Assembly (NCBI GenBank): GCA_026986575.1 | Contig: JALSOH010000006.1 | Location: forward strand, 416,001-480,000 | DNA: 64,000 nucleotides | Source: Thermoproteota archaeon | Lineage (GTDB): Archaea; Korarchaeota; Korarchaeia; Korarchaeales; Korarchaeaceae | Direction of reading: 5' to 3' | In this document: piece by piece, positions 1,798-26,040 of the stretch | Position numbering within the stretch: position 1 is the first letter of the stretch | Layout: each line of letters begins with the position of its first letter | Program-made: the position numbers and the translations under genes | Notes under the pieces: model-generated | The model's database searches: none | What the model saw: the letters and a program-made list of their open reading frames with translations, nothing else | Told to the model about the DNA's origin: nothing

Positions 1798-4269
1798 ATG
1801 GGGGAATCCAAACGACCGGACCGGAAAGGAAAAAAGGCCTCCATGTATAAACTCAAGGATGGACACATAGAGAGGCTCTCAACTGGAGTCAAGGAGCTAG
1901 ATAGAATACTTGGAGGTGGAATACCGAGGGGCTTCCTCGTGGCAGTCGCGGGAGAGCCAGGGACTGGGAAGACGGTACTTTGCATTCGCTTCTCATGGCA
2001 GGGTATCTTGGACGGTGATAAGGTGATCTACGTGACCACAGAGGAGTCTAGGGAATCAGTAATAAGGCAAGCTGAGACCTTGGGCATGAGGCTGGGCGAT
2101 GCGGTGACAAGAGGGAAGGCAATAGTAATTGACGCTCTCTTGGGGAGCGACAGATGGAGCCTCAGGTCCTTGAACCCCGAGGACATGGTGGAGAAGGTAG
2201 TGGAGGCGAAGAGGGAACTCGGCTATGGGAGGGCGCGACTGGTCATAGACAGCATGAGCGCCTTCTGGCTCGATAAGCCAGCAATGGCCCGCAAGTACTC
2301 CTACTACCTGAAGAAGGTGCTCCATAAGTGGGATTTCACTATTCTGGCCACTACTCAATACGCTATTACGACCTCTATCACCGGTAACCAGCTCGTCGCC
2401 GTGAAGGGAGAGAAGGAAGTGGAAGTGCTACCCATTAGGGAGCTCAGAGAAAAATTCGGGAACTCTTCCTCCAATTTAACATGCCTTTCCTTGAGGAGCG
2501 ACTTGGAGGCTGGGTGGTCTAGGATACTAGCAATAAGCGAGCACGAATCTAGGGAGCCCATCTATAAGATCAGGCTCGAGGGCGGCAGGTCGATTGAGGT
2601 AACGGGAGATCACAGCATATACGTTTGGCGAAACGGAATCGAGGTGATACCCGCTAGGGAGATCAGGGTGGGTGATTTCCTGATATCCCTACGGAGGTTC
2701 GCTGTTCCGGGAATCGGGAAGGCAAAGATAGATGTCGTCTCCTCCTTGATGGATTCCGGCCTGGATCCCTCTCTCATATACCTCAGGGGAGTTGACGACA
2801 TATCCCTGAATGATCCGAGGGTACTGAATGTGATCAGGGCTAAGAAAAGCGGTCACGATACCCTTAGGTACTACTGGCGCGGGCAGAAGGTTCTACCTCT
2901 GGAGGTCCTCCTCTCGGCCGGAGTCACCGGGTTCAGCGCGAGCAAGGTATCGATCGCGTTTAGGAGTGAGAGAGGAAGGGTAATAGTCATGAAGAAGGGA
3001 GTGAAATCTAGTATACAGGTGGACGGAAGGCTGGGGAGGCTTTTAGGGTACTACGTCGCTGAGGGCCATCTGAAGGATAACAAGACAGTCCTGACATTCG
3101 GAAGTCACGAAGTAAGTTACGCAAGGGATGCCGCAGATCTGTTCAAGGAGGTCTTTGGTGTGGACGCCAAGGTAAGAAGCGTGGGATCCAAACTGGTGGT
3201 TGAGGTCGATAGTGCGGTGGTGAGAATGGTCCTAGAGGATATCCTTGGAGTCAAGACAGGAGCTCACGCGAAGGAAGTTCCTCCCTTCATATTCCTAGCT
3301 CCTCGCGATGTAAAGATGAATTTCTTGATAGGGCTGTACAGGGGAGACGGTCACTTGAGGAGGAGTGGGCGGGACTTGACCCTGACGACGGCTAGTGAGA
3401 GGCTCTTAAACGGAGTCATCTTGCTCTTGCTCGAGCAGGGGATCGTTCCACACATATCTAGGAGGGGAAACGCGTATAACCTAGTTATATCCTACGCGGG
3501 CGGCTTGAAGAGGCTCAAGGAGGTCGTTGAGGCCATCCGTCCTGATGTCAGGATGAGGGACGGTCTAACTAGCTCGGCTCTCGAGGGTATACCTAGGGAA
3601 TTACTCGTCGAGATCCTCTCCTCACTGGGTACCCCAAGGAGCGGGACTTACACAAACCTGAACAAGGTGAGGGTCTCCTATTGGAGAGCTAAGAAGTCGC
3701 TGAACTCCGGTCCTGTGAAGAGGTTCTTGGAATTCGTCGATGGTAAAGGAAGCTCCAAGATCAGGAAGGAACTTCGGAGGAAGGGGCTGATCAATGCAAA
3801 TGAGGAGCTCACTGAAAAGGGCCTCAAACTTATGGAGAAGGTAGAAATCGCTAAATCTCTGATGGATTCAGATGTTATGTTCTTGAGGGTCAAGGAGATC
3901 GAAGTGTTGGAGGGACGCCATCCAGTTTACGATGTGGCGGTGGAGGGAGAGCAGAACTTCTTCGCTGGCTTGGGCTGGATACTCTGCCACAATTCAGAGG
4001 CGTTTGGCTTCGGTTTAGAGCATATAGCCGATGGGATCATCAGGTTCAGGAGAGTAGTTAGGGGAGGGAGGCTGAAGAGGTTCCTCTTGGTGGAGAAGAT
4101 GAGACAGACCCCCCATGACCTGAGGATGTATGAAGTGGTGATAGAGCCTAGCAGGGGGATGAGGCTCGTGGGACCCGTGGGTCTGAGAGCTGAAGATTTC
4201 GCACTGCCCCAGAGCGTCACCAAGAGGATACTCGAAGCTAAGAAGAGGTCGGAGGAGGAGCTCTCGTGA
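1798..4269 (+). CDS. Archaeal KaiC-domain RecA-superfamily ATPase interrupted by an intein
   Basis: Walker A GEPGTGKT; YVTTEES; LVIDSMSAFWLDKPAMARKYSY; QYAITT|SEAFGFGLEHIADG after intein removal; EKMRQTPH. Confidence 0.9.
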   Translation: MGESKRPDRKGKKASMYKLKDGHIERLSTGVKELDRILGGGIPRGFLVAVAGEPGTGKTVLCIRFSWQGILDGDKVIYVTTEESRESVIRQAETLGMRLGDAVTRGKAIVIDALLGSDRWSLRSLNPEDMVEKVVEAKRELGYGRARLVIDSMSAFWLDKPAMARKYSYYLKKVLHKWDFTILATTQYAITTSITGNQLVAVKGEKEVEVLPIRELREKFGNSSSNLTCLSLRSDLEAGWSRILAISEHESREPIYKIRLEGGRSIEVTGDHSIYVWRNGIEVIPAREIRVGDFLISLRRFAVPGIGKAKIDVVSSLMDSGLDPSLIYLRGVDDISLNDPRVLNVIRAKKSGHDTLRYYWRGQKVLPLEVLLSAGVTGFSASKVSIAFRSERGRVIVMKKGVKSSIQVDGRLGRLLGYYVAEGHLKDNKTVLTFGSHEVSYARDAADLFKEVFGVDAKVRSVGSKLVVEVDSAVVRMVLEDILGVKTGAHAKEVPPFIFLAPRDVKMNFLIGLYRGDGHLRRSGRDLTLTTASERLLNGVILLLLEQGIVPHISRRGNAYNLVISYAGGLKRLKEVVEAIRPDVRMRDGLTSSALEGIPRELLVEILSSLGTPRSGTYTNLNKVRVSYWRAKKSLNSGPVKRFLEFVDGKGSSKIRKELRRKGLINANEELTEKGLKLMEKVEIAKSLMDSDVMFLRVKEIEVLEGRHPVYDVAVEGEQNFFAGLGWILCHNSEAFGFGLEHIADGIIRFRRVVRGGRLKRFLLVEKMRQTPHDLRMYEVVIEPSRGMRLVGPVGLRAEDFALPQSVTKRILEAKKRSEEELS
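2374..3993 (+). mobile_element. Intein (540 aa) with LAGLIDADG homing endonuclease
   Basis: Starts SITGNQLV; block B VTGDHSIY; endonuclease motifs LLGYYVAEG and FLIGLYRGDG; block F VYDVAVEGEQNF; ends LCHN followed by Ser. Confidence 0.92.
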
Positions 4270-7473: not shown

Positions 7474-9498
7474 TCAACCACAAGGGCGATTTAACTCTTT
7501 CTCATTTATTATCTCCAGAGCCCGTTCAACAGCTCCCATTCCATATTTCCCATCAGGTGCCCTCTCGTAGGCTACCACTCTATCTGACTCCCCCTCTGGA
7601 ACTATGAAGTCCAGATCCTGGGATGCAGGTTGTAGATTGGTTTCCAGTGAAATGAACTCGTCGCTCCACTTGAATCCCCTCCCGAACCTCCTGTCAGCGA
7701 ATATGAAATAGATAGCTGGACTAGTGAATTCTCTCCTGTAATTGTCCAGCAGGGGAAGTTGGATCTCGAACTTCTCCTTCCACTTTGCGTAAATGCCAAC
7801 CACTCCGATGGATAGGAGCCACTTAGGCAGTTTAGCTGATCTCCACCTAAGATCGTATCTCCCCTTGCCAGTTCTGACCCTGACAACTGGGTTCGGTTTT
7901 GATCCAGATCTCTCCCTCATTTCGTAGACGAGGGACTCCATGAGATCAGAGTACCATACCTTGAGCTCGTGTTGTTTCGATATCGCCATAACCGTGGACG
8001 CCACCTTCATGAGAGGTAGTGATAGCTCCTCACCGTCATCTGATGCCGAACTAACCCTTACTGTGGAGGTCAGATAGATTTTAGGGACTTCAAACCGCTG
8101 ATCTCCTCTTTCTATAGCCGTGAACTTCCTGTGAAATTCTTTGTCAGCGCAAGGGGAGATGTAAGAGGTGAAGAAATCAGCTCTTTTGCTCTTAGCCACT
8201 TCTAAAAAGGGAGGCAGGTTTTCCTTTCCATTCCTCAGGTTCAAACCATTTGAAAAGACACTTGAGATCTCTCTCCTCGCCCATGGCAGGTCCACATTGA
8301 AGAAGATCCCATGGGAGCCGTATCTCCTAGCTAGCCTGCCCAGCCTCTGGACCACTTTCATAACGCTCATTGAGTTCACCGAGACCATGGAGGCGGGATA
8401 CACGTCCAGATCCTCAAGCTCTATTCCCACTTCACCCACACTGGTCATCAAGATCGTGTCGGCCCCTTCTATCCGCTCAATATATCTCTCCCACAGCTTC
8501 CTAGGCATCTGAGAGTGGAGAATGACGGACTCCCCTCCTAATCTCTCTTGGAGGGATACAAGCATGTTAACGCTGTCAGCGTAGATTATCCGGGGAGCCT
8601 CCAACTCATTAACCAGTTCAACCAATCCCTCGAAATCGGAACGACCAAACGAGATGAGCTTATCCCCGGCCTCTCTATCTACTAGCTCCAGATTCCTCCT
8701 CTCTAGCGGGACAGACCTATTGATCACTCTAGTTCCAAACAGGTCCTCGAGCGAGCGAAGAGCCCTCTCTATGGAAAGAGGATCCATCGTGGCGCTTATG
8801 AAGAGGAGGAAAGTAGGCCCGCTCAGGGGTGCCGATATCTTCCATCTACCTATTTCTAGGAGAAGTGTCAGGAGCCTCACGAAGCTCTTGCCCGTGTAGA
8901 AGTGGGGCTCATCTATTATGTAGAGGTCCACCTCCGCAAGCCCTGAGATCAAGTTGAAAGGGGTTATCCTATCTCCTATCCCCAAGCTAGATGATCTTCT
9001 GACTGCTAGCGATGCCAGCATCTGCGGATTGGTGAGAACTAACCTCATCTCCTCCTTCAACTTGGAGAAAGCTCTCATCACTCTTTCAGCCTTGTCCTCA
9101 CGATTCATATCCCCTCTTATCTCGATGACCTCCACATCGCCTAGGGCATCCCTCATACCCCTATAGAGATCCAACGATCTCCCTCCCATCTGAGAGGCTA
9201 GGAACTTGGTAGGCGCTATGTAGACCGAGTTTAACTTGCTCAATCCCAATGAGAGCTGCTTTGCCACGGCTGCAGCGGCGATTAGGGAAAGGTGGCTCTT
9301 TCCAGCCCCAGTGTCTGCTGACACGTAGAGGGGGATGACGGAGTTGCTTTCCCTGACCTCCTCGGACAGTCTCAAGATTTCTGCCAGCACCTCATGCTGT
9401 GACTTGGTTAGAGAGAGGCTCAATCCCCCGTAATTTCTCTCGAGAAACTCCCTTCTCAGCGGAGGCTCCCAGTAGGCTCCCAACTCCCTGTAGGCCAA
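7474..9498 (-). CDS. cas3: Cas3' helicase without HD domain (type I-D style)
   Basis: ADTGAGKS, YIAPTKFL, IIDEPHFY, SAT, TSVGEVGIE, QRLGRLAR; no N-terminal HD domain; last gene of the effector operon. Confidence 0.85.
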   Translation of the reverse strand: MAYRELGAYWEPPLRREFLERNYGGLSLSLTKSQHEVLAEILRLSEEVRESNSVIPLYVSADTGAGKSHLSLIAAAAVAKQLSLGLSKLNSVYIAPTKFLASQMGGRSLDLYRGMRDALGDVEVIEIRGDMNREDKAERVMRAFSKLKEEMRLVLTNPQMLASLAVRRSSSLGIGDRITPFNLISGLAEVDLYIIDEPHFYTGKSFVRLLTLLLEIGRWKISAPLSGPTFLLFISATMDPLSIERALRSLEDLFGTRVINRSVPLERRNLELVDREAGDKLISFGRSDFEGLVELVNELEAPRIIYADSVNMLVSLQERLGGESVILHSQMPRKLWERYIERIEGADTILMTSVGEVGIELEDLDVYPASMVSVNSMSVMKVVQRLGRLARRYGSHGIFFNVDLPWARREISSVFSNGLNLRNGKENLPPFLEVAKSKRADFFTSYISPCADKEFHRKFTAIERGDQRFEVPKIYLTSTVRVSSASDDGEELSLPLMKVASTVMAISKQHELKVWYSDLMESLVYEMRERSGSKPNPVVRVRTGKGRYDLRWRSAKLPKWLLSIGVVGIYAKWKEKFEIQLPLLDNYRREFTSPAIYFIFADRRFGRGFKWSDEFISLETNLQPASQDLDFIVPEGESDRVVAYERAPDGKYGMGAVERALEIINEKELNRPCG

Positions 9499-10364
9499 GA
9501 GAGGTCCCCCTCAGTCACTAAGTAAGTTTCACCATCCATCACGGCGTAGTACCCAGATGAAGCTTCGAACTCTCCCCAAACAGCAGGTATCACCTCGGCC
9601 TTGGGTTGATACCCCTTCATCCTCTGGAAGATCTTCATCGTTCCAACGGGTCTGAGACCGTTCTCCTCGAGGCACTCGCTCACACCCTCCCCACACAAGA
9701 GCGGTTGTATGAGCCTACCCCTTACCTTATCGCCGACCCTCACGAGTTTGACCTTCTTCACCACAATGGGATGCATCTTGCCCCTGAAGGAGTGCTTGGC
9801 ACCGAATCCGAATTCCCTCATGGCGCTCTCCAATAAAATGAGGGCCCTCTCCAGTTCGTTCCTATCGTATGATAGTAGGGAGAATCTCCAGATGGCTCCA
9901 GGTGCCCAGAAGTAGTGTACGGTGTAGTTGATTACCCTCCTAGTGAGGTCTGAGTCAAGCCCGAATAACTGGTACCCGTACACCTTTAAGGGACCCATCC
10001 CAGCCCTCTTTATCGTGCCTAATGCCGTCGCAGTTCCATCCAAGATTACGTTGAAGTCCTCCCTGATCACCTTGCTTGATCTGAGCATGACCCCATCAGT
10101 CACGCCAACACGGGGTAACTTGCGCGACAGGAGTGTGCTATATTCCATGCCTATCTCGCTTTTGGAATTCACCCACCTGTTGTAGTAAGAGTAGAAGTTC
10201 TCCCCTTGGACGCTCATCACGACCCTCAGCATGGCTCCGGCCACTGCCGTCCTATAAATGAATCCCCCAGGCCTGAAGACATTCACCTTCATGGTGGTCT
10301 GGGTGGAGCACACGGGCTCGACATTAACGGCCCTTATGAAATAGAGATAGGGCTGGGAGGTCAA
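9456..10364 (-). CDS. cas5: Cas5-group RAMP (Csc1 position), divergent
   Basis: YRTAVAGAM helix and Gly-rich loop GFGAKHSFRG; lies between cas7 and cas3. Confidence 0.65.
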   Translation of the reverse strand: MTSQPYLYFIRAVNVEPVCSTQTTMKVNVFRPGGFIYRTAVAGAMLRVVMSVQGENFYSYYNRWVNSKSEIGMEYSTLLSRKLPRVGVTDGVMLRSSKVIREDFNVILDGTATALGTIKRAGMGPLKVYGYQLFGLDSDLTRRVINYTVHYFWAPGAIWRFSLLSYDRNELERALILLESAMREFGFGAKHSFRGKMHPIVVKKVKLVRVGDKVRGRLIQPLLCGEGVSECLEENGLRPVGTMKIFQRMKGYQPKAEVIPAVWGEFEASSGYYAVMDGETYLVTEGDLSWPTGSWEPTGSLR

Positions 10365-11677
10365 CCGATTCCCCCCTCTCTCCCCCTTTTCTTCTGCTGT
10401 TGGGGAGCGAGATCCTTTATTGCATCATTATAGTTATTCCTGGCCCTCTTCGGCTTTCCCAGAAAATCTATAACCGAGGCAGCGTGTTCCACGAGCAGCC
10501 TGAACGCGTCATCCCTCTCCAAGAGGGACATCCCCTCACTCATGTAGTCTTCGAGCCTTTTTATCGCCTTCTCCCCTACATACCTTACCAGCACCGACTT
10601 CTCTCCTAACTTAGCCACGCATATTCCCCTACAATCGCCTACGACGTCGAAGAATGTGGCCTTATATCCAGCTTCTGGGTCCCTTACATCTATGGGCATC
10701 GACGGAGGCGGTGGATTTGCTAGATAACCCTCTACTGAGAAGACCTCATCCACGACTATCAGAGGGATACCCTCCTTCACACAGTGATCCCAAACGCCGG
10801 CGCCCGATGAGGTCTTGGCCCCCTTCCTGACATCTTTCACGAGATGCTCGTAGGCGAGCATGGCCAGCTCCAGTTTGGTAGGATTGAAGAGAGTTGTCTT
10901 GAAATATCCAGGCCCTTTGAACATGTACTCTACGAAGAACATCATTTCCTCACTAGTTCCCCCCTCCTGAGTCGTGCCAGCCCTAGGAACCCTGTTCCTC
11001 ACGATCTTCTCCAGTAGTGAGGGCTCGAGTATCCGACTGCCGGCAGGCAGGCCCAGCTCCTTCGCAGCTGACTTCACCGTGAAGTAAGTCTTGAAGTCGG
11101 TCTCCTTGTACTTCTTCTCCCAGTTGACCGGAACGGCTCCCTGCGTGGCGGTTGAGGCGGCAGCCCCCTCAGCTATGCAAGCTGGGCAAACCCCGCATGG
11201 ATCAAGAGGGGTGCAAGAGGCCATCTTCATCACCACATTCCAAAGAGCCCTCTTAGCTGCGTCGTCCTCTAGAATATCATTGGCGACCTCCTCCACTATC
11301 TTCAAGTACTCCTTGGCCTCCCTCCCACTCTTGTCATTGGCTATGGCATCTAGAAATGGGTGCATGATCCTTCGGAGCGTCTCCCTGAAGAAGCTCTCCC
11401 TGACGTAGTTGAACTTGGTGGCCCTTATCCTCGCCCTAGAATCGAACTCGTACTTTCCGTCCTTCTCGTAGAGGAAGGGTTCCAGATCTGTTACTGCTTC
11501 GTTTATTTCCAACCTCTCATTACCTGAAAAGGCCCTATCGAACTGTATGCATCCCCATACTCTCACAGCCGGTATGGAAGGGAGTAACCCTATCTCCCTT
11601 CCGAGGCCGGACGGTACCTTCGAGAGGATGTCCGGCAACTCGCCGGGATCGCTCACAACCTCCCACTTGAACTCCAT
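10361..11677 (-). CDS. cas7: Cas7 backbone subunit, Csc2-like (438 aa)
   Basis: Zn motif CTPLDPCGVCPAC...G, RNRV, and GAKTSSGAG matching the Csc2 GA.xSR.G loop. Confidence 0.75.
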   Translation of the reverse strand: MEFKWEVVSDPGELPDILSKVPSGLGREIGLLPSIPAVRVWGCIQFDRAFSGNERLEINEAVTDLEPFLYEKDGKYEFDSRARIRATKFNYVRESFFRETLRRIMHPFLDAIANDKSGREAKEYLKIVEEVANDILEDDAAKRALWNVVMKMASCTPLDPCGVCPACIAEGAAASTATQGAVPVNWEKKYKETDFKTYFTVKSAAKELGLPAGSRILEPSLLEKIVRNRVPRAGTTQEGGTSEEMMFFVEYMFKGPGYFKTTLFNPTKLELAMLAYEHLVKDVRKGAKTSSGAGVWDHCVKEGIPLIVVDEVFSVEGYLANPPPPSMPIDVRDPEAGYKATFFDVVGDCRGICVAKLGEKSVLVRYVGEKAIKRLEDYMSEGMSLLERDDAFRLLVEHAASVIDFLGKPKRARNNYNDAIKDLAPQQQKKRGREGGIG

Positions 11678-11694
11678 AAAACCACCTCCTTATA

Positions 11695-12273
11695 CTAATC
11701 ACTTAAACCGGCCTGAAACGGGAGAGGAACAGGAGAGGAGTTAGAACCAGCTTGACTCTGACTGGAACATCCCAAGCCCCTCTTGGAGCTGTCAAACAGA
11801 GAACTGAGCCTACCGTCCCAGCCGAAGTGCACGTAGATGTATGAGACGTCTCTAACCCCCATGATCCCTATCACCACCTTCCTCGCCCTTTCAGATCGAT
11901 TTGATAGCTCCTTCACGAGAACATCAGTTAACTTAGCCAGCGACTTTTCCGCCACGCAGCTGATCGACCCCCTCAGCTTTGACCTTATCTTATCCATGGC
12001 GTAATTCAGGAACTTACCAGAGTAGTTCTTCAAGGTCCTTACTGGGTCTAGCTTGGGATCAACGCAGGAGGCGAATCTCATGAAGAGTGAAAATTTCTCC
12101 GTCTGACTGCTGTCACTGCCCAGCAGGTTGGCGCTTCTTGACACCAAGAAGAGCAAGGCTCCCAGCGTAAAGGATATCTCCTCGCTTTCCAACTCTCCCA
12201 AGGATTTGAGCCTCCTCTCCAGCTCCTCGAACGAGGACGGGATGATCTCAACCCCACTTAGGCCCTCACCCAT
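11695..12273 (-). CDS. Putative separately encoded Cas11-like small subunit
   Basis: 192-aa, helix-rich ORF overlapping the stop of the large subunit by 8 bp and preceding cas7. Assigned by position only. Confidence 0.5.
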   Translation of the reverse strand: MGEGLSGVEIIPSSFEELERRLKSLGELESEEISFTLGALLFLVSRSANLLGSDSSQTEKFSLFMRFASCVDPKLDPVRTLKNYSGKFLNYAMDKIRSKLRGSISCVAEKSLAKLTDVLVKELSNRSERARKVVIGIMGVRDVSYIYVHFGWDGRLSSLFDSSKRGLGCSSQSQAGSNSSPVPLPFQAGLSD

Positions 12274-14257
12274 TTTTGTTCAGCACCTCCCTGACCATCC
12301 TCAATGCCCCCAGCTCCCGAGACTCTCGCAAGTATTCCACGAGATCCATGAACTTCTCGAGCGTCAACCCCTTGGGAATCTTACCATCCATCTCCTTCAG
12401 TAGGATGGCCCCTATCTGAGCCCTGTCACCTTCCAACTTATGAACCATCCCTTCAGGCTTCAATCCCAGGTTTCTGAGCTTCTTGATGGATTTCCCTATT
12501 CTCTCCAGCAATTCAACGTAGTCCTCCGGATCCCACACCCCCCTCACGAGGATGTGGTCCCAGACCTGTCCCGGAGACATGGGCCCGTTCCCGATTCTCA
12601 GCCCCCATTCGAACTTGTAAGTCACGCGACCACAGGGAAGAACCACCTTCTCCTCCCCTAGCCCTTCCATCAAATCTGAGAGGAGAGAATTTAGCTCCCC
12701 CAAGAGATCCTCTCCTCTCGATTTCATGAGGGAAACCATGACGCTCAATCCGTACCTCCTGAAATCCCTCGAAGTGAAGGATGATCTGAGTTTAGAGAGC
12801 ATAAGTTCCCTGAGGTAGTAGGAGAATACCTCGACAACTAGGGGGTCCGTGTCCCCCGAGCAAGGAGGTGAAGTGATCTCCATGATCCTCTCGGTCCCGT
12901 AGAGAACGAAGGTCACTGGGACACCGCTATCATAGGAGCTCCTGCTGAAGAGCCAGAGGCATGTCGGGCAGAGGGGTCTATCGTTATGCTCAAGTCTGCC
13001 CTTGTAGTTGTAAATGCTATCGGATACGGCCCTCAGGTAACCTAGCTGCATGCTCTTCTCGAGAGTTACCATTTCACCGCTTAATCCCCTTGAGACTCCC
13101 TCACTATCGCCTAGATATTCCCTCAGCTCCTTTGTGTCCAGTACTTTAGCCATCGGCCTTCCGCAGGAGTAGCAGGGAAAGCCTTTATCCGTAGGAACAG
13201 GCCTGAAACCAGAGTGCAAGGCGTCTACCAGGGCATCCCTGAGCCTTACATCGAAGTTTTCCTTCCCCGCCACAAGGTTTATCTTCCAGTGACGGAGCGT
13301 TACTAGGTCCTCGAGTATATTGTTGGGAACGTTACTGAACTCCTTTCTCAAATTGAATTCCTCTTCAGGAGCTCCCAACCAGACGGCTACAATGATTGAG
13401 CTATTATCTTCTACCACCGAGCCCCTCAGGAGGGATAAACCGCCCCACTCGGTTCTCACTATTTCCTTGTCAACGATCTTCCTCAATGAATCATAGAAAC
13501 CTAAGAAAGCAGATACAACTGCCGTGGGCCTGGCTTCAAATAATGCGCGGTTGAGGGATAGAGAGATGACATGTATCGCCGGCTCACCCACCATCTGCTG
13601 GAGTGATCTTATCATCTCCACAATCTCGGTCACATCCGATTTGAAGGAGGGACCTCCCTCCCAAGCTGATGCTATGGAGTCAGCAACCCTCAAGCTCATG
13701 GAGTGGGCCTTGGCTAGGGGGATGGGATCTGGAAGGGGACATCCGATCTCATCAAAGAAGGAACCCAATGCCTCGGCAACCATTTCTATCTTCTCGGGCG
13801 TCCTCATTCCCTCATGAGATGCGTTAGCAGCTCTCAACACGTTCTCAATTATGGAGCCTTCCACCTCCCTCAGGAGGTCCCGTACCGAGCTCGGTAGGAT
13901 CGCCATCTCCTCATCCAGCAAGGATGACATGAGCAACCTTAGGGCCTCCTTATTCCTCTCCACATCCAAATTGCCGTGTCCATCGAACCTTCTCATTGCA
14001 TCCATATCTCTGACCATGTCCTCCGGCACAAACAGCTTATCGTAATCGTGGTAAAGGCTCTCCAAGAAGACTAGATCGCTGTAGGAATCCAGCAGCTCTT
14101 GGCCCATACCGCATTCCTTCGCGTGACGGGCGATCACGTATTGAGAGGGAAGGTTAAATATGGTTCTGAGGGTGTATACAGCTATCCCATGCTCGTAGAA
14201 GGTCTGGGTATTCCTTCCCCACTTACCCAGATTGGCCCTAATCATCGCCGGGGGCAT
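12266..14257 (-). CDS. cas10d: Cas10d-like large subunit with N-terminal HD nuclease and Zn finger (663 aa, short)
   Basis: QTFYEH...LYHDYDKL...H...SHEG...VADSIAS HD motifs; CYSC...CPTC; no GGDD; first gene of the effector operon. Confidence 0.75.
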   Translation of the reverse strand: MPPAMIRANLGKWGRNTQTFYEHGIAVYTLRTIFNLPSQYVIARHAKECGMGQELLDSYSDLVFLESLYHDYDKLFVPEDMVRDMDAMRRFDGHGNLDVERNKEALRLLMSSLLDEEMAILPSSVRDLLREVEGSIIENVLRAANASHEGMRTPEKIEMVAEALGSFFDEIGCPLPDPIPLAKAHSMSLRVADSIASAWEGGPSFKSDVTEIVEMIRSLQQMVGEPAIHVISLSLNRALFEARPTAVVSAFLGFYDSLRKIVDKEIVRTEWGGLSLLRGSVVEDNSSIIVAVWLGAPEEEFNLRKEFSNVPNNILEDLVTLRHWKINLVAGKENFDVRLRDALVDALHSGFRPVPTDKGFPCYSCGRPMAKVLDTKELREYLGDSEGVSRGLSGEMVTLEKSMQLGYLRAVSDSIYNYKGRLEHNDRPLCPTCLWLFSRSSYDSGVPVTFVLYGTERIMEITSPPCSGDTDPLVVEVFSYYLRELMLSKLRSSFTSRDFRRYGLSVMVSLMKSRGEDLLGELNSLLSDLMEGLGEEKVVLPCGRVTYKFEWGLRIGNGPMSPGQVWDHILVRGVWDPEDYVELLERIGKSIKKLRNLGLKPEGMVHKLEGDRAQIGAILLKEMDGKIPKGLTLEKFMDLVEYLRESRELGALRMVREVLNKNG

Positions 14258-14328: not shown

Positions 14329-14557
14329 GCTCGACAAACGATCCTCCCTCACTGAGGGATGGGCTTCGGACTGGGAGGGAACTTCGGTCCCATGGTCTCA
14401 CTAATAGCTTTAATGAGGTTCCTGGAAAATCAAAGTTCCCTGACAGCTTAATTCTCTAAATTAACGGATGATGGGACTCTAGAGATCATTAAAATCTACG
14501 GGATCGCTATTTCAATTGGGCGGATATTTATTAAAATCGGGAACCTCCAAGCCCAGA

Positions 14558-16084
14558 ATGCGCCTCCTGAAACGCCTTCTCTCTGAGATCAGGAGAGCTT
14601 CTTCGATCATGAGAGTGGATCCCCTGAGATCATCACCTAGGGAGGTGATGCTTGAAAACTTCGATCCAACCCCTGGCTACAGGTACGGGGTTGCTACCTC
14701 TGAAGGTAGGATGAGGATCTCCTCCAAGCTCAGCGACGAGCTCATAGAGTTAGTTATCAGGAGAGAGGCTTTTATACATCTCTTACCCGAAGGAGAGGGT
14801 GAGCTCCCCCAGATAATTGACCTGGCTTGGGCATACTCAGAACCCCCTGAAGACCTGTGGAAATCATGCTACTCAGCTCCAAAGTACGCCATGTTCCAGA
14901 ACTATGAGCCTTTCAAGATGTTCTATACCCTGCCAAGCAGGAAAAAGAGAATGGAAGCCTTAAGGCGTATTTTACTGGCTGTCAGGTCTCTCTCATCCCA
15001 AAGGGCATTGGATTTCCCTAGATACCATTATATCCTGAGGAGGATGCTTGCTCCCTTCTTTAAACCTACTCCAGCCGATAACAAGATGTTAAAGGTGCTC
15101 AAAAAGGACCCGTATGCCAGCAGGGACAAGTTGAGGAGGGAGACCGGTCTAAGCCCGGCATCGATATCTAGGAGTTTGAGCAGGCTGAGAGACATGGGAT
15201 TCATCTCCGGTCCTGCCAATGTTGACCTGAGCAAGTTGGGGCTACTTACGCTGGTCGTGACCTTTCCCAACAGAAGGGAACTAAGGGATTCCTTAATGAC
15301 CTTCCCCTTCACATACAGGGTGTTTGAACCAGTCTCAAGGGATGTGGACGCTCACGCTTTTCTGCTGATACCCAGGGAGGCCCTCAATTACATGGAATCT
15401 CTTGAGGAAATGGGACTTGGTGTGTATCAGGTGATCAAGCAGAAATTCATCCTGAACCTCTCACCCCCTAAGAATCCCATGGAGCTCCTGCTTGAGGCCC
15501 TTCAGGAGGAGCATGCCGATGTGGAATCAGGAATTGAGGTGAGCTGGCCCAAGAGAAAGATCAGTAGGGAGGATTTAAGGGTCTTGAACGTAGCTCTACT
15601 GAAAGGGGAGGTTAAGCCGTCCCATTTGAAGGAGATTGGCGTCTCTTCCCCGAGATACAAGCTCAGGAAACTCAAGGAGGAAGGGATCTTATCCCATTTC
15701 TACACTCTAGGCGTACCTCCTGCTGGTGATGACCTCCTCCTAAGGTTGGAGCTTGAGGAAAACCAGTTCAGGAGATTGGTCGAGGCTATAGGGAAGGTAT
15801 CCACCGTTATAGCTGCTTACATACGGGGTTCCTCATGGGAGGGGTCCATGGGGAGCCTCCTACCCAAGGATTATCTCAGGGGGAGGCTGGTCAGGGGGCT
15901 GAAACTTCTGCTGGGGGATAGGCTCATTTTGGCAGAGGATGCTATAGATTATTTGGGCGAGTGGACCATTCCCTTGCACCTATGGGATGAGGAGAAGCAG
16001 AGGTTCATGTGGGAGGATGATCTGAGCCTGCTACTCACTAGGATCAGGTTGGCCGTCAGGGAAGGCGTCTTGGGATTTTCTTAG
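14558..16084 (+). CDS. Large winged-helix protein with two Lrp/AsnC-like HTH units
   Basis: DPYASRDKLRRETGLSPASISRSLSRLRDMG...VDLSKLGL; second unit ISREDLRVL...YKLRKLKEEGIL; N-terminal REAFIH segment. Confidence 0.65.
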   Translation: MRLLKRLLSEIRRASSIMRVDPLRSSPREVMLENFDPTPGYRYGVATSEGRMRISSKLSDELIELVIRREAFIHLLPEGEGELPQIIDLAWAYSEPPEDLWKSCYSAPKYAMFQNYEPFKMFYTLPSRKKRMEALRRILLAVRSLSSQRALDFPRYHYILRRMLAPFFKPTPADNKMLKVLKKDPYASRDKLRRETGLSPASISRSLSRLRDMGFISGPANVDLSKLGLLTLVVTFPNRRELRDSLMTFPFTYRVFEPVSRDVDAHAFLLIPREALNYMESLEEMGLGVYQVIKQKFILNLSPPKNPMELLLEALQEEHADVESGIEVSWPKRKISREDLRVLNVALLKGEVKPSHLKEIGVSSPRYKLRKLKEEGILSHFYTLGVPPAGDDLLLRLELEENQFRRLVEAIGKVSTVIAAYIRGSSWEGSMGSLLPKDYLRGRLVRGLKLLLGDRLILAEDAIDYLGEWTIPLHLWDEEKQRFMWEDDLSLLLTRIRLAVREGVLGFS

Positions 16085-17492
16085 AGATCAGGGATTTGAG
16101 CCAGTTAACGTAATCACTGTCCACATCTGGGAGATATATACTCACTTCAGGATGACCACTGCCCTCCCTTTTGGCCAGCTCCGCGCGCACGAGGCCCTCC
16201 CTCATCAGGGCTTCCATGACCCTCCTCCTGCTTAGTATCCCCCTAGGATTCGAGAACCTGCCCCCAAGAAGGACCTCAATCTCCTCGACGGAAAGGCCCT
16301 TCTCCCTCTTCCTATCACTTATCTTCTTGGACAGGGATTTTTCGCACTCCTCTCCGGGATTGTATTCAGAGCACAGCCTCCTGCTCACTATCCTAGCAAA
16401 AATCTTTGAGCCTTTATAATCGGAGTCTAGGGCGTCCTTCATGCAAAGCATGGTGAGGACGAGAGCCTCCAAGTCTGAAAGCAAAGGGGTCCTGAACATA
16501 GGTGTTCTAAGCCCCAGCCTCGACATGGTCAGAAGAACCCTGTGGAGATCCTTGATTCTGACGCCAGAGAGGAACTCCCCGTGTATATATGAGTATGCCT
16601 CGTACCCCCTCCTTATTTCTGACTTGAAGGGCTCTGACAACCTCTTATAGGCGGAGTACATCCTCCTAGAAGGATAGAGGATCTTTGATGTCCAGAGGTC
16701 CGGGTTGAGATACACCAGACCCACGAACGCAGCCCAAGAATCCGATTCTTCTCTCCAGAGAGATGGGTTCGTGTAGAAAACCTTCTGCCCGAGTACGATG
16801 TCCGCCGCCATACGGAGTATCCGCCTCATCTTCCTCCTAGTATCCCTGTGAACACTCCCTGATTTCACCAATTGAGTTAGAAAGCCGTCCTTTGAGACTA
16901 AAGTTATATCCTTATATCTTAGCGGTTTCGATGGAAGAGGAACTTCTTTAAACGGAGATATTAGCTTCTCAGCGTCTCTCCTTCTGACATGGGCCAAAGA
17001 TCCCTCTAGGACGTAAATTTCAGTGTAAAAATTGGATGACCTGCTGCCCGGTAGGTCTGACAGCTTTCTATTCAGATATCCTCTAAAAGCATGAGAAAGG
17101 ATTCTCCATCTGGATATCAGGCTATCTAAATTCATATTTTTTCTGAGGAAAACGTTAACGGCCAATCTTACTGAAAAGAGCCCAAAGGAGTAGGAGTGCT
17201 CCATAAGGATTGGCAGCTCCGGTGAGGGAAGGCCCACGCGGTTGGGATCCAAACTGAAACCCTCCTCCAAGTTTACCTCATTGCCGCTCAGCCGCCTCAC
17301 TTTCCTCTCCACCAAGAAGCCTGCACACGGGAATTCCGGCCCGGGATTTCCATCTCTCAACTCCTTACTCTTGACGGCTCTACCCACCCCTCTCACGTCG
17401 TCCTTGGTCAAGGAGAGACATACCTCAGCAATTCTACTCATCATCCCACTTGGGTCAACCTTGTAGAACCTAGGCCTGAGACCAGCTCTCAT
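16056..17492 (-). CDS. Uncharacterised 478-aa protein with C-terminal winged helix, downstream of cas6
   Basis: GLSVEEIEVLL...VMEALMREGLV...GSGHP...IY fits a wHTH; starts 23 bp after the cas6 stop on the same strand. Confidence 0.6.
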   Translation of the reverse strand: MRAGLRPRFYKVDPSGMMSRIAEVCLSLTKDDVRGVGRAVKSKELRDGNPGPEFPCAGFLVERKVRRLSGNEVNLEEGFSLDPNRVGLPSPELPILMEHSYSFGLFSVRLAVNVFLRKNMNLDSLISRWRILSHAFRGYLNRKLSDLPGSRSSNFYTEIYVLEGSLAHVRRRDAEKLISPFKEVPLPSKPLRYKDITLVSKDGFLTQLVKSGSVHRDTRRKMRRILRMAADIVLGQKVFYTNPSLWREESDSWAAFVGLVYLNPDLWTSKILYPSRRMYSAYKRLSEPFKSEIRRGYEAYSYIHGEFLSGVRIKDLHRVLLTMSRLGLRTPMFRTPLLSDLEALVLTMLCMKDALDSDYKGSKIFARIVSRRLCSEYNPGEECEKSLSKKISDRKREKGLSVEEIEVLLGGRFSNPRGILSRRRVMEALMREGLVRAELAKREGSGHPEVSIYLPDVDSDYVNWLKSLISKKIPRRLP

Positions 17493-17515
17493 TAAAGTTA
17501 GAAGGACCTTCCTTA

Positions 17516-18352
17516 TCAGGCGGATCCCCTCTTCGATCTTCCCTTGCGATGAGGGTGCAATCTCACTGCCACCACGCCGAAACCCATGGTCGTCCTCCTC
17601 CCAAGCCCCGAGAACTCGGCAAATCTCATTAAAGCTGCAGCCATCCTCCCAACGTAGGCATCCAGCCTTCTCATGCTGTAAGAGAGCCTTCCCAGCCAGC
17701 TCTCCCTAACGACTCTCTCATCGCCGAACCACAGCTCCACCACGGCTTCCTTGAACCAAGTGGGATTTTCGGGCTCGGCTAGGTAGAGGTGCCTCACTAG
17801 TGTACCGGGGAGTCTAAGTTCCTCCGGCGCATTCGAGTTCCAGGCCTCGAATGGCCTCTCAAGTACGTGAGGCAGGGGCGGAGGGAACTCCTTGTCAAGT
17901 ATGGTGTTTGTGATGAGCTTGAAAATAACTCTCCTCGCTACCGGAGACCTGAGGAGGAGGTTCTCGTAATCCTTCCTTCCTATCTTAACTTCAGCTACCT
18001 CCAGTGGGACACCATTAACCTCGAGGTCGGCCTTTAGTATTCCCTCGACCAGAGGATCAACGAACTCATCTCTCAGGAGTTTAAAGGTAGCCCTTACTTC
18101 TCCCCCCTTGGGGACCGAGGCGTACCTTCCCCTAACGAACTCCCTAGCGGTCGTGAGCCTGGTTACCGAGTAGGGAGCACCCATTCCGAGAGAGGAACTG
18201 AGATCATGTAACTTCCTCGATAGATCCTTAGACTCAGCCGATAATGATCTGAAAAGCATGGATTGCACCAGTCTTCCTGAAGAAGGAAGTTCATACAGCA
18301 ATCTATCACTGGCCAGTAGGTAAGCTGTAATCATCGCGGGCAATTGACCCAC
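17516..18352 (-). CDS. cas6: Cas6 crRNA-processing endoribonuclease
   Basis: PYSVT segment and C-terminal Gly loop AEFSGLGRRTTMGFG. The ORF is open to 18442; the start is more likely GTG 18352 or ATG 18334. Confidence 0.9.
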   Translation of the reverse strand: MGQLPAMITAYLLASDRLLYELPSSGRLVQSMLFRSLSAESKDLSRKLHDLSSSLGMGAPYSVTRLTTAREFVRGRYASVPKGGEVRATFKLLRDEFVDPLVEGILKADLEVNGVPLEVAEVKIGRKDYENLLLRSPVARRVIFKLITNTILDKEFPPPLPHVLERPFEAWNSNAPEELRLPGTLVRHLYLAEPENPTWFKEAVVELWFGDERVVRESWLGRLSYSMRRLDAYVGRMAAALMRFAEFSGLGRRTTMGFGVVAVRLHPHRKGRSKRGSA

Positions 18353-18405
18353 CCTAATGGCTCCGTGATGTAGTTCGACTAATGCATAAAAAGTATTGTT
18401 CCATT

Positions 18406-18433
18406 GTTTCAAAAAGGACCGCAATCTTGAAAC
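18406..18433. promoter_or_regulatory. Inverted repeat GTTTCA-N16-TGAAAC in the divergent cas6 / nuclease-operon promoter
   Basis: gtttca aaaaggaccgcaatct tgaaac in an AT-rich intergenic stretch. Confidence 0.6.
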
Positions 18434-18477
18434 TATTGACAAATTACCTCTTTTTATTCACCGAAGGTAATCGAGAG

Positions 18478-19770
18478 ATGGCCATCCCAGAGACACTCGC
18501 CTCGGTCCTCAATGAGAAATTCAACTCCCTTAGCTTGGTTGAGAGGAGGAAGAGGGATCTCCTAGACCTAGCTGAGGGAATGCTGAAAGAGATAGCCACA
18601 TCGTTGGGAAGTGATGGGAGAAGGATAAAATACGTGAAGAAGGGGATCCTTCTCGATGACAGATACCTGATCTTCCTCGCGGAGAAGATGGACTCCATCC
18701 TGATAGAGAAGCTGAGCGCGAGGTACAGTCCCGAGGAGATGTTTCTCATCTGCTGGTATTCAACGGAATCGGCTGTTAGCCTCGCTAGGGAACGAAGGGC
18801 CAGTCTACTCATTCTATCCAGATCCCAAGTTCTGAGCACGGATACTGAGTTCTCCAAGGCCATACTGAAGCTCTGGGAGGAGAAAGGATTCTATTTAGAA
18901 TATTTCAGGAGTCTAAGCTCTGAGGAAAACATTTTCGATCAAGAGACCTTTTTCCTTGCGGAACTCATCGCTCTCAGGGAGTTCTACAGAGAAGAGGTGT
19001 CGAAAAATCTAGATTCCAAGGTCATTGAACTACTTGACGACTTGGAGGAAATGGTGTTGAAAGAGGAAGATGAAACCGAAATTAATAGACTCCTCATCGC
19101 CATACTAGAGGCCTATCCAGCGAAGATAGATGAGAGGAACTCGGCCAAGCCTGGCAAACCGGATGTAATAGCATACTCACCACTTTGGACCTTATTTGAA
19201 CTAAAGAACGAGGAAGCAAATAGGTCTCACGTAGATCAGGCCAGAAAATATGCCAGTGAGTATAGAGGAACCTCTAGATCTCCCTTAGGCGTACCTTGGA
19301 GGACCGTCTTGATAGCGACCGAGGTTTCCCCTGATGTCCACTCCTATGCGCTCAAGAAAGGCATTAGGACTATGACTTGGGGGGTTCTGATAGGCTTTTT
19401 GAGGGATGTATACTCGAAAGGAGTGCCGCTGGAGCTTCTGAGGGACTCACTTGATAGCACCGATCCACAAAACACCTTGGTTTCCCGGGTGGACGATTAC
19501 CTTGAGGCATTGAGGGCCCGAGCTGAATTGCTTAAGGAGATCCTCTCTGTGAACGGAATTGACAGGAGAGAATTGGATAGGATAGTGGCATCGAAAGACT
19601 ATCCGTGGATCGGAGAGCTGGAGGAGATGATTCACGAGCTATCTGGTCCTTTAATCGGTTTCTTAGTCGTAGAAGAGGACCTAATCTCCTACAGAGGGCC
19701 CCATTCCATTAGCAGGGCCCTCAGGGCTCTCGGCTATTTAGGGGGTATGGTAAATGATGGACTCTGGTAG
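18478..19770 (+). CDS. PD-(D/E)XK restriction-endonuclease-like protein (Mrr/NucS-like) with C-terminal wHTH
   Basis: GKPDVIA...FELK...VDQARKY...TVLIA; a degenerate copy of the same fold is suggested at the N-terminus (MFLICWYSTESAVSLARE). Start taken at ATG 18478. Confidence 0.75.
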   Translation: MAIPETLASVLNEKFNSLSLVERRKRDLLDLAEGMLKEIATSLGSDGRRIKYVKKGILLDDRYLIFLAEKMDSILIEKLSARYSPEEMFLICWYSTESAVSLARERRASLLILSRSQVLSTDTEFSKAILKLWEEKGFYLEYFRSLSSEENIFDQETFFLAELIALREFYREEVSKNLDSKVIELLDDLEEMVLKEEDETEINRLLIAILEAYPAKIDERNSAKPGKPDVIAYSPLWTLFELKNEEANRSHVDQARKYASEYRGTSRSPLGVPWRTVLIATEVSPDVHSYALKKGIRTMTWGVLIGFLRDVYSKGVPLELLRDSLDSTDPQNTLVSRVDDYLEALRARAELLKEILSVNGIDRRELDRIVASKDYPWIGELEEMIHELSGPLIGFLVVEEDLISYRGPHSISRALRALGYLGGMVNDGLW

Positions 19771-20465: not shown

Positions 20466-21836
20466 ATGGCCGACTACAGGAAGTACGGCCTCATCAGGAA
20501 CCCCTTCCCTCTGCACGGTTCCTTTCCCTTGGACGACAAATACGAGGAGAGATACGCCAAGCTTCTGATAGGAAGAGATAATCTGAAGGAGTTGCTAAGG
20601 AAGAAACTGGAGAACCTTAGAGCCGGTGAGTCCTCTGCTGTTTTACTTTTACTCGGAGATTATGGCACCGGGAAGACTCACTGCCTGAAGTTCATGCAGC
20701 ATTGGGCTATAAGAAAGTATAGGAACATAATTCCCCTGTACTTCAAGGGTCTCCCCGGGCCGAAAATGAGAGACCTTCTCAGAACCTTCTTAGACTCTTT
20801 GGAAGGGATCTTGGGAAGAGACTACCTGATGAAACTTGCATCAGAATCCCTTAACGTCGAGAGGAGCGGTCTAGTGGATACCAAGAACTTCCTGTTGGCC
20901 CTGGCCTCCAAGAACAGGAGCAAGGTCATCCCGGCCCTCAGGTGGGCCAAGGGTTACGGGCTATCCGATCAGATGAGGGAGAAACTTGGTCTCGTATCGG
21001 ACCTTGATGAATCAGTCGCTAGGGACGTTCTCTCGACCCTCCTAGAGATTATATGGGAGGTGAGGGGTACCAAGACACTGCTTCTAATAGATGAAGTTGA
21101 GGAATTGCTCAAATATGACCAGGAGGATCTTTACGACTTCTATTCCGGTCTCAGAAACCTCATAGACACGGTCTCCACGGGAATGATGATGGTCCTAGCT
21201 TCTACACCCTCCCTACTAAGGGACGAGGAGAAGGGCATCGCAGCTCTAAACCCAGCTTTGAATAGCAGGATCTCGGACGAAAACACCATTATCCTCTCGC
21301 CCCTTGACTCCATAGGAATAAGGGCCATGATAATCTCTTATCTCAGGGAGTTCAGGATACCCAGCGTTAAGAAGCTTATGAGCACATACCCCTTCACTGA
21401 GGAGGCCATCAACCTGATCGCTGATCTGAGCAGGGGAATACCAAGAAACGCCCTGATGCTCGCGAGCATAGCTCTGAGGGAGGCCCTATCCAAGGGAAAG
21501 AAGCAGATAGATGACGCATTCATCAGAACGATCCTAGAGCTAAGGAAGGATGAGTTAGCAGACTTCTTATTGGAATTTAAAGGTGAGGGAGAGGAAAGAA
21601 GAGATTTCAAGGAGAAACCAGTTGGACCAGCTCCTGTGGACGAGAGGACGGCTCTGAAGGTGAAGGTGATCAAAATATTGGAGGAACTCGGCGGAGTGTC
21701 CCCGAGATCTAGGATCCAGCAGAGAGTCAAGGAGATCTCCAGAAAGAAGTTCTACAGGTTGCTCGAGGAGATGAGAGATGAGGGAATGATTGATCTGATC
21801 AAGGTAAGGGGAGGGTACAGGGTGGTCCTCAAATGA
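20466..21836 (+). CDS. AAA+ ATPase (BrxD/DUF2791- or Cdc6/ExeA-like) with C-terminal wHTH
   Basis: YGLIRNPF; Walker A GDYGTGKT; Walker B LLIDEVE; GLRNLID; YPF; GIPR; C-terminal HTH. Stop overlaps the cas1 start (ATGA). Confidence 0.85.
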   Translation: MADYRKYGLIRNPFPLHGSFPLDDKYEERYAKLLIGRDNLKELLRKKLENLRAGESSAVLLLLGDYGTGKTHCLKFMQHWAIRKYRNIIPLYFKGLPGPKMRDLLRTFLDSLEGILGRDYLMKLASESLNVERSGLVDTKNFLLALASKNRSKVIPALRWAKGYGLSDQMREKLGLVSDLDESVARDVLSTLLEIIWEVRGTKTLLLIDEVEELLKYDQEDLYDFYSGLRNLIDTVSTGMMMVLASTPSLLRDEEKGIAALNPALNSRISDENTIILSPLDSIGIRAMIISYLREFRIPSVKKLMSTYPFTEEAINLIADLSRGIPRNALMLASIALREALSKGKKQIDDAFIRTILELRKDELADFLLEFKGEGEERRDFKEKPVGPAPVDERTALKVKVIKILEELGGVSPRSRIQQRVKEISRKKFYRLLEEMRDEGMIDLIKVRGGYRVVLK

Positions 21837-22849: not shown

Positions 22850-23142
22850 TGACACTCGTGATCTACGACATCAGCGACGATGATATCAGGAAATCCGTGG
22901 AGAAGGTATGCAAGAACTATGGACTCAGACACATACAGAGGAGCGCCTTCATCGGCCTCCTATCCAGAGGAGACAGATACAGTCTCTACAAGGAGCTGAA
23001 AAGGCTGCTCTGGGAGGAAAAAGGATCTATACGAATATATGTGATGAATCGGAGGCTCTACAACATGAGGATGTCTGTGGGCGTCTTGGAGGGCTTCGAT
23101 GATGACCCAGAATACGATGAAGAGGTTTATATCAGGCCCTGA
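22846..23142 (+). CDS. cas2: CRISPR-associated Cas2
   Basis: LVIYDISDD, YGLRHIQRSAF; ATGA overlap with cas1. Confidence 0.95.
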   Translation: MMTLVIYDISDDDIRKSVEKVCKNYGLRHIQRSAFIGLLSRGDRYSLYKELKRLLWEEKGSIRIYVMNRRLYNMRMSVGVLEGFDDDPEYDEEVYIRP

Positions 23143-25755: not shown

Positions 25756-26040
25756 CGATGCTGGGATATCCTCTTACTAAATAAAGACAACTATCCGCCT
25801 GTTTCACTAATATTATACAGTTATGAAATGTCCTCGTATCTTGCTTGTATATAAAGGGATTATGAGAAGATTAGGGACAAATGCATTTGCCAGTAATGAA
25901 ACAAATAAGGCCACCATAACGTAAAGACTCTATAAATAATCCGAATTAGATTTAATCAATTTTAGTTAATGCTTGGTCTTATTGTTAATTCATTAATTGT
26001 TGAATCCCGTGCAGGAAGATAAAGATTATCTCGCTTTACA
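25756..26040 (-). promoter_or_regulatory. CRISPR leader (AT-rich)
   Basis: AT-rich non-coding stretch next to the intact end of the array; contains GTTTCA-N17-TGAAAT (25801-25829) and an ATGAAACAAAT half-site. Confidence 0.75.

Follow-up and report, generated by a model that had tools for sequence, protein, structure and literature searches.

In a 64,000-nucleotide stretch of Korarchaeaceae DNA (hereafter the window: contig JALSOH010000006.1 of GenBank assembly GCA_026986575.1, positions 416,001 to 480,000 of the forward strand), we found the effector genes of a class 1 CRISPR-Cas system that belongs to a sequence-isolated lineage, one in which the architecture of type I-D is combined with a separate, type III-like cas11 gene. 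The genes occupy window positions 7474-14257 on the minus strand as five co-oriented open reading frames (ORFs), each overlapping or abutting the next, and encode in order a large subunit (12266-14257; 663 amino acids, aa), a Cas11-like small subunit (11695-12273; 192 aa), a Cas7-like putative backbone subunit (10361-11677; 438 aa), a Cas5-like RAMP subunit (9456-10364; 302 aa), and a Cas3' superfamily 2 helicase that has no HD domain (7474-9498; 674 aa). This effector module probably works as a I-D Cascade does, forming a complex guided by CRISPR RNA (crRNA) that recruits Cas3' and cleaves DNA with the HD nuclease of its large subunit, with no signalling. An earlier reading of the DNA letters (the original prediction) had proposed a divergent I-D-like effector here, and our analysis supports it: the large subunit joins an HD domain to a Cas10 fold without GGDD, and the Cas3' is a helicase only. 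The details on which that prediction was built also hold, from the 663-aa HD and zinc-finger large subunit and the 192-aa ORF that overlaps its stop by 8 base pairs (bp) in another frame to the cysteine motif of Cas7, the glycine-rich loop of Cas5, and the HD-less Cas3'.

The large subunit comprises an HD nuclease domain (residues ~1-220), a first palm domain (~225-350), a zinc finger, a second palm domain (~445-585), and a short C-terminal helical domain (577-663). The HD residues H23, H70-D71-x-D73-K74, H94, N102, H148, H185, and D193 do not vary among the 12 family members, and neither do the zinc finger cysteines C362, C365, C430, and C433. The HD motifs run H23 ... H70-D71 ... H148 ... 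H185 ... D193; the conserved histidine ahead of the HD dyad gives the Cas3''-type order, which separates Cas10d from the permuted HD domains of type III as set out in the available text of PMC10212523. The GGDD/GGDE motif is missing from all 12 members (one member has an unrelated GGDA at residue 613, the only near match), and a hairpin at residues 540-545 of the model, reading LP[CD]xxV, probably takes the GGDD position.

An AlphaFold2 model built from the 12-sequence alignment (predicted local distance difference test, pLDDT, 86; predicted template-modelling score, pTM, 0.86) matched 40 Protein Data Bank (PDB) chains at E ≤1e-3 in Foldseek (best 3.1e-6, probability 1.00), and all among the matches listed are type III Cas10 proteins (Csm1, Cmr2). 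VIA-align placed model residues 226-663 on III-B Cas10 (Z 9.7, root-mean-square deviation 5.8, 302 residues aligned), residues 7-218 on the GppA HD domain (Z 8.4), and the second palm (445-583) on nucleotide cyclases and Y-family polymerases (Z 7-8); the core aligns to Cmr2, Csm1, and III-D Cas10 over residues 225-663. A structure search independent of Foldseek returned the Cas10d of the Synechocystis I-D Cascade (7sbb_I) at rank 28 (Z 6.8, 384 residues aligned) over model residues 9-650, which take in both the HD domain and the core. As modelled, the large subunit joins an HD nuclease to a cyclase-dead Cas10 core, with the two palms, intervening zinc finger, and C-terminal helices of the Cas10 superfamily and without its GGDD; it therefore fits the functional definition of Cas10d, though its core fold is at least as near to type III Cas10.

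The separation of large and small subunits is conserved across the family. At the junction, ...AAC AAA AAT GGG TGA, the ATG of the 192-aa ORF lies inside the end of the large-subunit gene (ATGGGTGA), which produces the 8-bp overlap; GGGAGGTG stands a few bases upstream of this start, and a GGAGG-like (Shine-Dalgarno-like) motif precedes every small-subunit start in the loci. An out-of-frame overlap at a single point in a metagenome-derived genome could also be an assembly or sequencing artefact or a sign of gene decay, and the original prediction had singled out positions 12266-12273 as the place of a possible frameshift. Relatives keep two ORFs there: a separate small-subunit ORF is present, with no continuous ORF, in all seven loci with a readable junction (the window, L008, which is identical to L026, L006, L007, L013, L027, and L028), archaeal and bacterial alike, and in all seven its gene is flanked by the large subunit on one side and cas7 on the other. 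The overlap measures 8-17 bp in the five archaeal-type loci; in the two bacterial-type loci, the ORFs abut in L013, from a Gemmatimonadota metagenome-assembled genome (MAG), and lie 15 bp apart in L028. The small-subunit family profile recognises the small ORFs of L027 (E 9e-70) and L028 (E 4e-32). Since two ORFs occur in all seven loci, an assembly frameshift is excluded for practical purposes, and we rejected artefact and pseudogene alike as vanishingly improbable: the loci come from different genomes and metagenomes and differ in junction sequence, and each protein is conserved and has a confident fold model, the two being modelled as binding each other. None of the outcomes that the original prediction had named as counting against it, such as a continuous cas10d ORF in relatives, was observed.

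The family is rare. The large subunit is present in 5 of the 41 genomes searched around the window's genome (its own genome counted), with further loci coming from public collections, and its 12 homologues are all 649-677 aa long. The search accepted lengths of 364-1161 aa, and within that range no fused large-plus-small form was found among the 12.

To place the system, we compared it with canonical I-D loci from another genus of the same family (L018) and from another archaeal phylum (L020). Curated models recognised their Csc2 (74.5 and 43.7 bits, respectively), Csc1 (39.7 and 38.6 bits), and Cas3' (121 bits), and the Csc3 model detected poorly, at 23 bits in L018 and not at all in L020. 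Both loci are ordered cas10d-csc2-csc1-cas3', and the window's order (large subunit, small subunit, cas7, cas5, cas3') is the same with a small-subunit gene inserted; in the bacterial locus L013 the helicase comes first, followed by the large subunit, small subunit, cas7, and cas5, and Cas6 is close by. MAFFT brings the HD dyad and motif V (R-x-A/S-D-x-I-A-S) into register with those of the L018 Cas10d (SLRVADSIAS versus LIRASDAIAS). The window system thus shares with I-D (Cascade structures 7SBA/7SBB; Cas10d crystals 6YES/6THH) an HD domain on a cyclase-dead, Cas10-like large subunit, a helicase-only Cas3', a single cas7 and a single cas5 in the order of the archaeal comparators, and the presence of cas6, cas1, cas2, cas4, and an array; the best CRISPR fold match of its small subunit, though weak, is also to I-D, namely to the C-terminal domain of Cas10d. 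It differs in that cas11 is a separate gene, out of frame with or adjacent to the large-subunit gene, whereas I-D Cas11d is an in-frame internal product of cas10d with no separate cas11. Its large subunit is 649-677 aa long across the family, compared to 840-871 aa in the archaeal comparators, and its Cas7 has 438 aa with an invariant four-cysteine (Cys4) cluster, compared to 307-325 aa. The profiles for Csc1, Csc2, and Csc3 detect nothing in it. In searches for canonical components, Csc2 turned up in 1 of 133 genomes of another archaeal phylum and Csc3 in 3 of 43 genomes of the window's phylum.

Since the window's two subunits sum to 855 aa (663 plus 192), a length that matches the 871- and 840-aa Cas10d ORFs of L018 and L020, it is possible, if doubtful, that the split is derived: a frame change at the internal cas11d start of a fused cas10d would have yielded two overlapping genes. 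The 8-17 bp out-of-frame overlap is the signature of a single indel at an internal start, and canonical I-D already carries a ribosome binding site and start codon inside the gene at that place, according to the available text of 10.1101/2020.04.18.045682. Set against this origin, no fused member occurs among the 12 homologues, and the split is conserved among members whose large subunits share only 27-36% identity, as well as in bacterial loci whose genes abut or lie 15 bp apart; any fission must therefore be old. Secondary fission bears on polarity only and is compatible with the I-D-like mechanism that we propose below.

The small-subunit family has nine members in the protein collection, none of them with a Pfam domain. 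Its AlphaFold2 model (pLDDT 87, pTM 0.82) has nine helices over residues 6-166 and a disordered tail. The original prediction looked to Foldseek for a Cas11 fold, and this was borne out only in part: Foldseek gave 0 matches at E ≤0.001, its most probable rows being Sulfolobus Cas10d crystals (probability 0.69 and 0.41), while the protein is indeed a helical bundle whose best CRISPR match, a weak one, is the C-terminal domain of Cas10d. In a further structure comparison the top two rows were again Sulfolobus Cas10d, over C-terminal residues 712-844 (Z 5.6) and 641-845 (Z 5.3); the I-A Cascade chain 9crq_L (Z 4.2) and Cmr5 (Z 3.8) also matched, all at Z values far below the tool's safe level for helical bundles. 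An unbiased search of 48,161 chains contained five Cas11-type rows among the 50 matches listed, which we take, from entry titles and chain sizes, to be Cas10d 712-844, a 121-aa SsoCsm chain, Cas7-11 260-364, a 162-aa Csm chain, and Csm1 658-757. These matches to the predicted model are suggestive of a Cas11 fold, though not decisive. Together with the separate ORF in seven of seven loci, Cas11-type fold matches (at Z of only 4.2-5.6) support the standalone Cas11 that had been proposed for this locus.

Modelling of the complex agrees with this assignment. The large and small subunits scored 0.80 as a pair, compared to 0.00 for the best of three controls; among 80 solved complexes, 58 reach this mark, as do 2 among 110 mismatched pairs, figures that are only approximate here because our own alignments were used. 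Three runs showed 100% contact agreement with partner pLDDT of at least 88. The modelled interface joins large-subunit residues 611-641, in the C-terminal helices, to small-subunit residues 6-11, 31-35, and 139-156, the last being the conserved GVRDVSYIYV region. The small subunit is thereby predicted (a model, not a measurement) to dock on the C-terminal helices of the large subunit.

Among the remaining effector proteins, the 438-aa protein is a putative Cas7-like backbone subunit, judging from its operon position and family alignment. Its motif C155-x5-C161-x2-C164-x2-C167 is shared without change by all 19 aligned sequences, and it carries an RGAKTSSGAG loop. The family numbers 19 clusters at E ≤1e-3 in a 5.8-billion-member collection (8000 candidates scored), of which 18 were aligned with the query and one, a 308-aa fragment, was omitted; bacterial members comprise a Nitrospira protein (so named by its source) and one from a Gemmatimonadota MAG. 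Two of the 19 members match the C-terminal part of the PADLOC Cas7b (I-B) profile, at E 2.1e-4 and 2.9e-4, in the region with the RGAKTSSGAG loop; with all members scanned at E ≤10, PADLOC offered the family no other model.

The Cas5-like subunit has the loop GFGAKHSFRG, whose residues G186, G188, H191, F193, R194, and G195 are invariant in six of six sequences. Its protein Atlas features point to RAMP, Cmr6, and Csm4 clusters (0.91-0.92), and its Atlas model to a Thermoproteota Cas5 cluster (template-modelling (TM) scores 0.57/0.62) and to I-D Cas5/Csc1 (TM 0.57 by query, 0.72 by target). We treat these Atlas matches, along with weak Cmr6 matches to the loop (E 0.0095 and E 0.38-0.51), as leads only; PDB sequence searches with this protein (single-sequence and profile) gave only chance-level rows.

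Cas3' matches DEAD, ResIII, and Helicase_C alone in Pfam, and its helicase motif I starts near residue 61; there is therefore no room for an HD domain. To judge from sequence models, it is weakly nearest to I-D Cas3', with 33 bits for TIGR03158 (cut-off 69.1) and E 7.6e-10 for the PADLOC model Cas3 CAS-I-D. BLASTP against the canonical I-D Cas3' of L020 aligned only the region of helicase motif VI, at E 0.011. A separate Cas3'' HD protein scored below cut-off throughout the genome, which is 99.7% complete: the only match to TIGR01596 (cas3_HD), elsewhere in that genome, reached 16.5 bits compared to the 43.45 required.

Several of our results weigh against a I-D-like reading. Pfam, NCBIfam, and PADLOC assign no family at E ≤0.01 to the large subunit or to the small subunit; with the PADLOC threshold relaxed to E ≤10, the 12 large-subunit members gave a single chance-level match, to RT_UG17, in one member, and PDB sequence searches with the large subunit, single-sequence and profile, gave chance-level rows only. 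Csc3 (TIGR03174), Csc2 (TIGR03157), and Csc1 (TIGR03159) have no match in the window at E ≤0.01. The original prediction had named this profile comparison as a check; by it the subunits lie outside the ordinary I-D families, whereas the canonical I-D loci were recognised by the same means. hhalign of our family alignments against the Cas10d and Csc2 of L018 also gave nothing, a weak test because the templates were single sequences. The window's Cas7 has no Pfam, NCBIfam, or PADLOC match at E ≤0.01, no PDB sequence match, and no usable Atlas match; its profile, run against 1.84 billion representatives, recovered four proteins, each a member of its own family, and Cas7b is the only sequence link of the family to any Cas7, with none to Csc2. 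The small subunit's Z values of at most 5.6 tie with those of unrelated helical bundles (e.g., bestrophin, Z 5.7), and Cas10-Cas11 assemblies have already been solved, such that the score of the large/small complex may partly mirror likeness to them. When 24 spacers of the CRISPR array were compared by BLAST with the organism's own genome, only short chance matches appeared (viral collections were not searched). Finally, the Cas10 core scores higher against III-B and III-D Cas10 (Z 8.2-9.7) than against Synechocystis Cas10d (Z 6.8).

This last result, along with the absence of any sequence link to Csc1, Csc2, or Csc3, would also be expected if the family were an independent offshoot of type III whose likeness to I-D arose by convergence rather than a branch of I-D. 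In type III, too, cas11 is a separate gene (its product being Csm2 or Cmr5) and the large subunit ends in a short helical domain, the zinc finger between the palms is shared as well, and the array's spacers are long (36-61 nucleotides, nt). The 2025 classification moreover describes, in the available text of PMC12669027, type III subtypes with inactive palms and active HD domains that are predicted to cut DNA; like the window system, these are rare, have an apparently active HD with predicted DNA cleavage, and occur in archaea and a few bacterial MAGs. We nonetheless consider such an offshoot unlikely. A conserved histidine precedes the HD dyad, the order found in type I (Cas3''), and this marks Cas10d (in the available text of PMC10212523), and gaps of 1-3 in Z do not settle the matter for a multidomain model of 663 residues. 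The system has a single cas7, unlike the several Cas7-group paralogues of type III (Csm3/Csm5 or Cmr1/4/6); the operon retains a Cas3' helicase, which type III lacks, in archaeal as well as bacterial branches; and the gene order matches that of archaeal I-D exactly. GGDD is absent, so that signalling is not expected, and there is no CARF or SAVED effector. Cas1, Cas2, and Cas4 are present, unlike in III-G and III-H, which have no adaptation module as PMC12669027 describes them in its available text; that text mentions no Cas3' in the inactive-palm subtypes, and in III-H as described there a diverged Cas11 replaces the Cas10 C-terminal domain. It is by these descriptions that we set those subtypes apart.

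A standalone Cas11 and a helicase-only Cas3' are also features of type I-A (Cas8a, Csa5/Cas11a, and split Cas3'/Cas3''), which is typical of Thermoproteota. Loci of type I-A are ordered cas11-cas7-cas5-cas3', as the last four genes are here, and Csa3-like regulators in the locus and the small subunit's match to the I-A Cascade chain (Z 4.2) add to the resemblance. One could accordingly imagine a I-A-like system in which the Cas3'' HD was fused to a Cas8a-type large subunit alongside a Csa5-like Cas11, but we rejected this as very improbable. The body of the large subunit is the two-palm Cas10 fold with a zinc finger (Foldseek E to 3e-6, probability 1.00) and not Cas8a, its HD domain is fused rather than carried by a separate Cas3'' protein, no Cas8a chain appears among the 50 matches listed in either structure search, and no protein has a profile match to Csa2, Csa5, or Cas8a.

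Returning to the I-D-like system that we favour, we infer that the proteins would assemble into a single complex that targets DNA and recruits Cas3'. The repeat hairpin would be where Cas6 cuts the precursor crRNA. The 5' handle of the crRNA would be capped by Cas5 and the large subunit, the guide would be covered by several copies of Cas7, and the minor filament, starting on the C-terminal helical domain of the large subunit, would consist of standalone 192-aa Cas11 copies. Recognition of target DNA would then recruit the helicase-only Cas3', and the N-terminal HD domain of the large subunit would cut the DNA. Since the palm domains appear catalytically dead, no cyclic oligoadenylate signalling is expected. 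Translation of Cas11 would begin at a separate start codon that follows a Shine-Dalgarno-like motif and either overlaps or adjoins the large-subunit stop, and Cas11 would thereby be produced in excess over the large subunit; canonical I-D achieves the same by in-frame internal initiation.

Models of class 1 evolution treat I-D as a bridge from type III to type I, with cas11 fused onto cas10 along the way, and internal translation of Cas11d has been reported as conserved across all Cas10d lineages examined (as both points are given in the available text of PMC10212523 and 10.1101/2020.04.18.045682). Against this background, the family might be a surviving pre-fusion stage of the passage from type III to type I, in which a Cas10 without cyclase, with an HD domain in type I order and a Cas3' helicase, still had cas11 as a gene of its own. 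Such a lineage would branch outside all fused Cas10d and merit its own type I subtype; we regard this combination as rather unlikely, and give subtype rank in itself a modest chance. In the literature, the text of PMC12669027 included (its figures and supplements and the Science 2023 survey aside), we came upon no I-D-like system whose cas11 is a gene of its own, and an earlier listing as a rare variant is possible.

Whichever polarity applies, the locus provides a natural set of I-D parts with an unfused cas11, making the cas11 fusion step open to tests by phylogeny (ancestral versus secondary separation) and by experiment, where the question is how fusing or splitting the genes affects stoichiometry and interference. 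It adds a compact, sequence-isolated effector, with a 663-aa large subunit and a Cys4 Cas7, from an archaeal lineage of thermophile type that also has relatives in bacteria. Current Cas profiles miss the large subunit, small subunit, and Cas7 of the family, and this very rare system is a useful test case for the origin of type I from type III.

The effector genes are accompanied by the other components of a CRISPR-Cas locus. A Cas6 endoribonuclease for crRNA processing lies at 17516-18442 on the minus strand (Pfam PF10040, E 3e-8; TIGR01877, E 1e-9; PADLOC Cas6/Cas6d models), and a three-gene adaptation module at 21833-23677 on the plus strand encodes Cas1 (21833-22849; PADLOC, E 4e-69), Cas2 (22840-23142; Pfam, E 7e-17), and Cas4 (23099-23677; PADLOC, E 3e-38). 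Divergent from the effector operon, a 522-aa winged-helix regulator with a Csa3/CasR-like HTH is encoded at 14516-16084 on the plus strand (Pfam HTH_24, E 5e-8; PADLOC CasR and Csa3, E ~1e-6). The CRISPR array (23685-25757, minus strand) has 25 exact 37-nt repeats and one degenerate terminal copy. Read on the minus strand, the repeat has ATTGAAAG as its 3' end and forms a hairpin (-12.6 kcal/mol, z -3.7). Past 25757 is an AT-rich leader. Judged by its gene content, the locus is apparently a complete class 1 CRISPR-Cas system, functional in appearance.

In the relative L006, the 37-nt repeat (array at 16352-19113) has altered bases in the hairpin stem yet still folds (GGGCUCC...GGAGC versus GGCUC...GAGC with a larger loop), and it shares identical ends with the window's repeat, 5' GAAGCAAU and 3' GAAGAUUGAAAG. 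Elsewhere in the window's own genome there are a 60-copy repeat array on contig C7 and a 9-copy array on contig C10 beside a Cmr2 (type III-B) gene, and the 4-kb contig C3 holds a Cmr2-like fragment together with one copy of the window's repeat at the contig end. Given the Cmr2 gene, the Cmr2-like fragment, and the repeat on C3, a type III-B module may share crRNAs with the window system.

Two ORFs inside the CRISPR locus have no family match: one of 462 aa at 18382-19770 on the plus strand and one of 478 aa at 16056-17492 on the minus strand. ORFs of similar size occur at the same places in L006 and L007, a comparison of position and size alone. By eye, and without tool support, the 462-aa protein has a PD-(D/E)xK-like string (PDV...ELK...QARKY) resembling Cas4/Csa1-type nucleases. 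Directly upstream of cas1, and overlapping its start, a BrxC/BrxD-like AAA ATPase is encoded at 20466-21836 on the plus strand (Pfam PF10923, E 1e-17; PADLOC BrxD, E 2e-14), preceded by a small HTH protein; L006 has an ORF of like size in the place of this ATPase. Elsewhere in the window, the plus strand encodes an 823-aa KaiC-family ATPase at 1798-4269 into which is inserted an intein bearing a homing endonuclease domain of LAGLIDADG type (Pfam KaiC, E 1e-44; Intein_splicing, E 2e-20; LAGLIDADG_3, E 5e-16), and a very long ORF of 1657 aa at 38143-43116.

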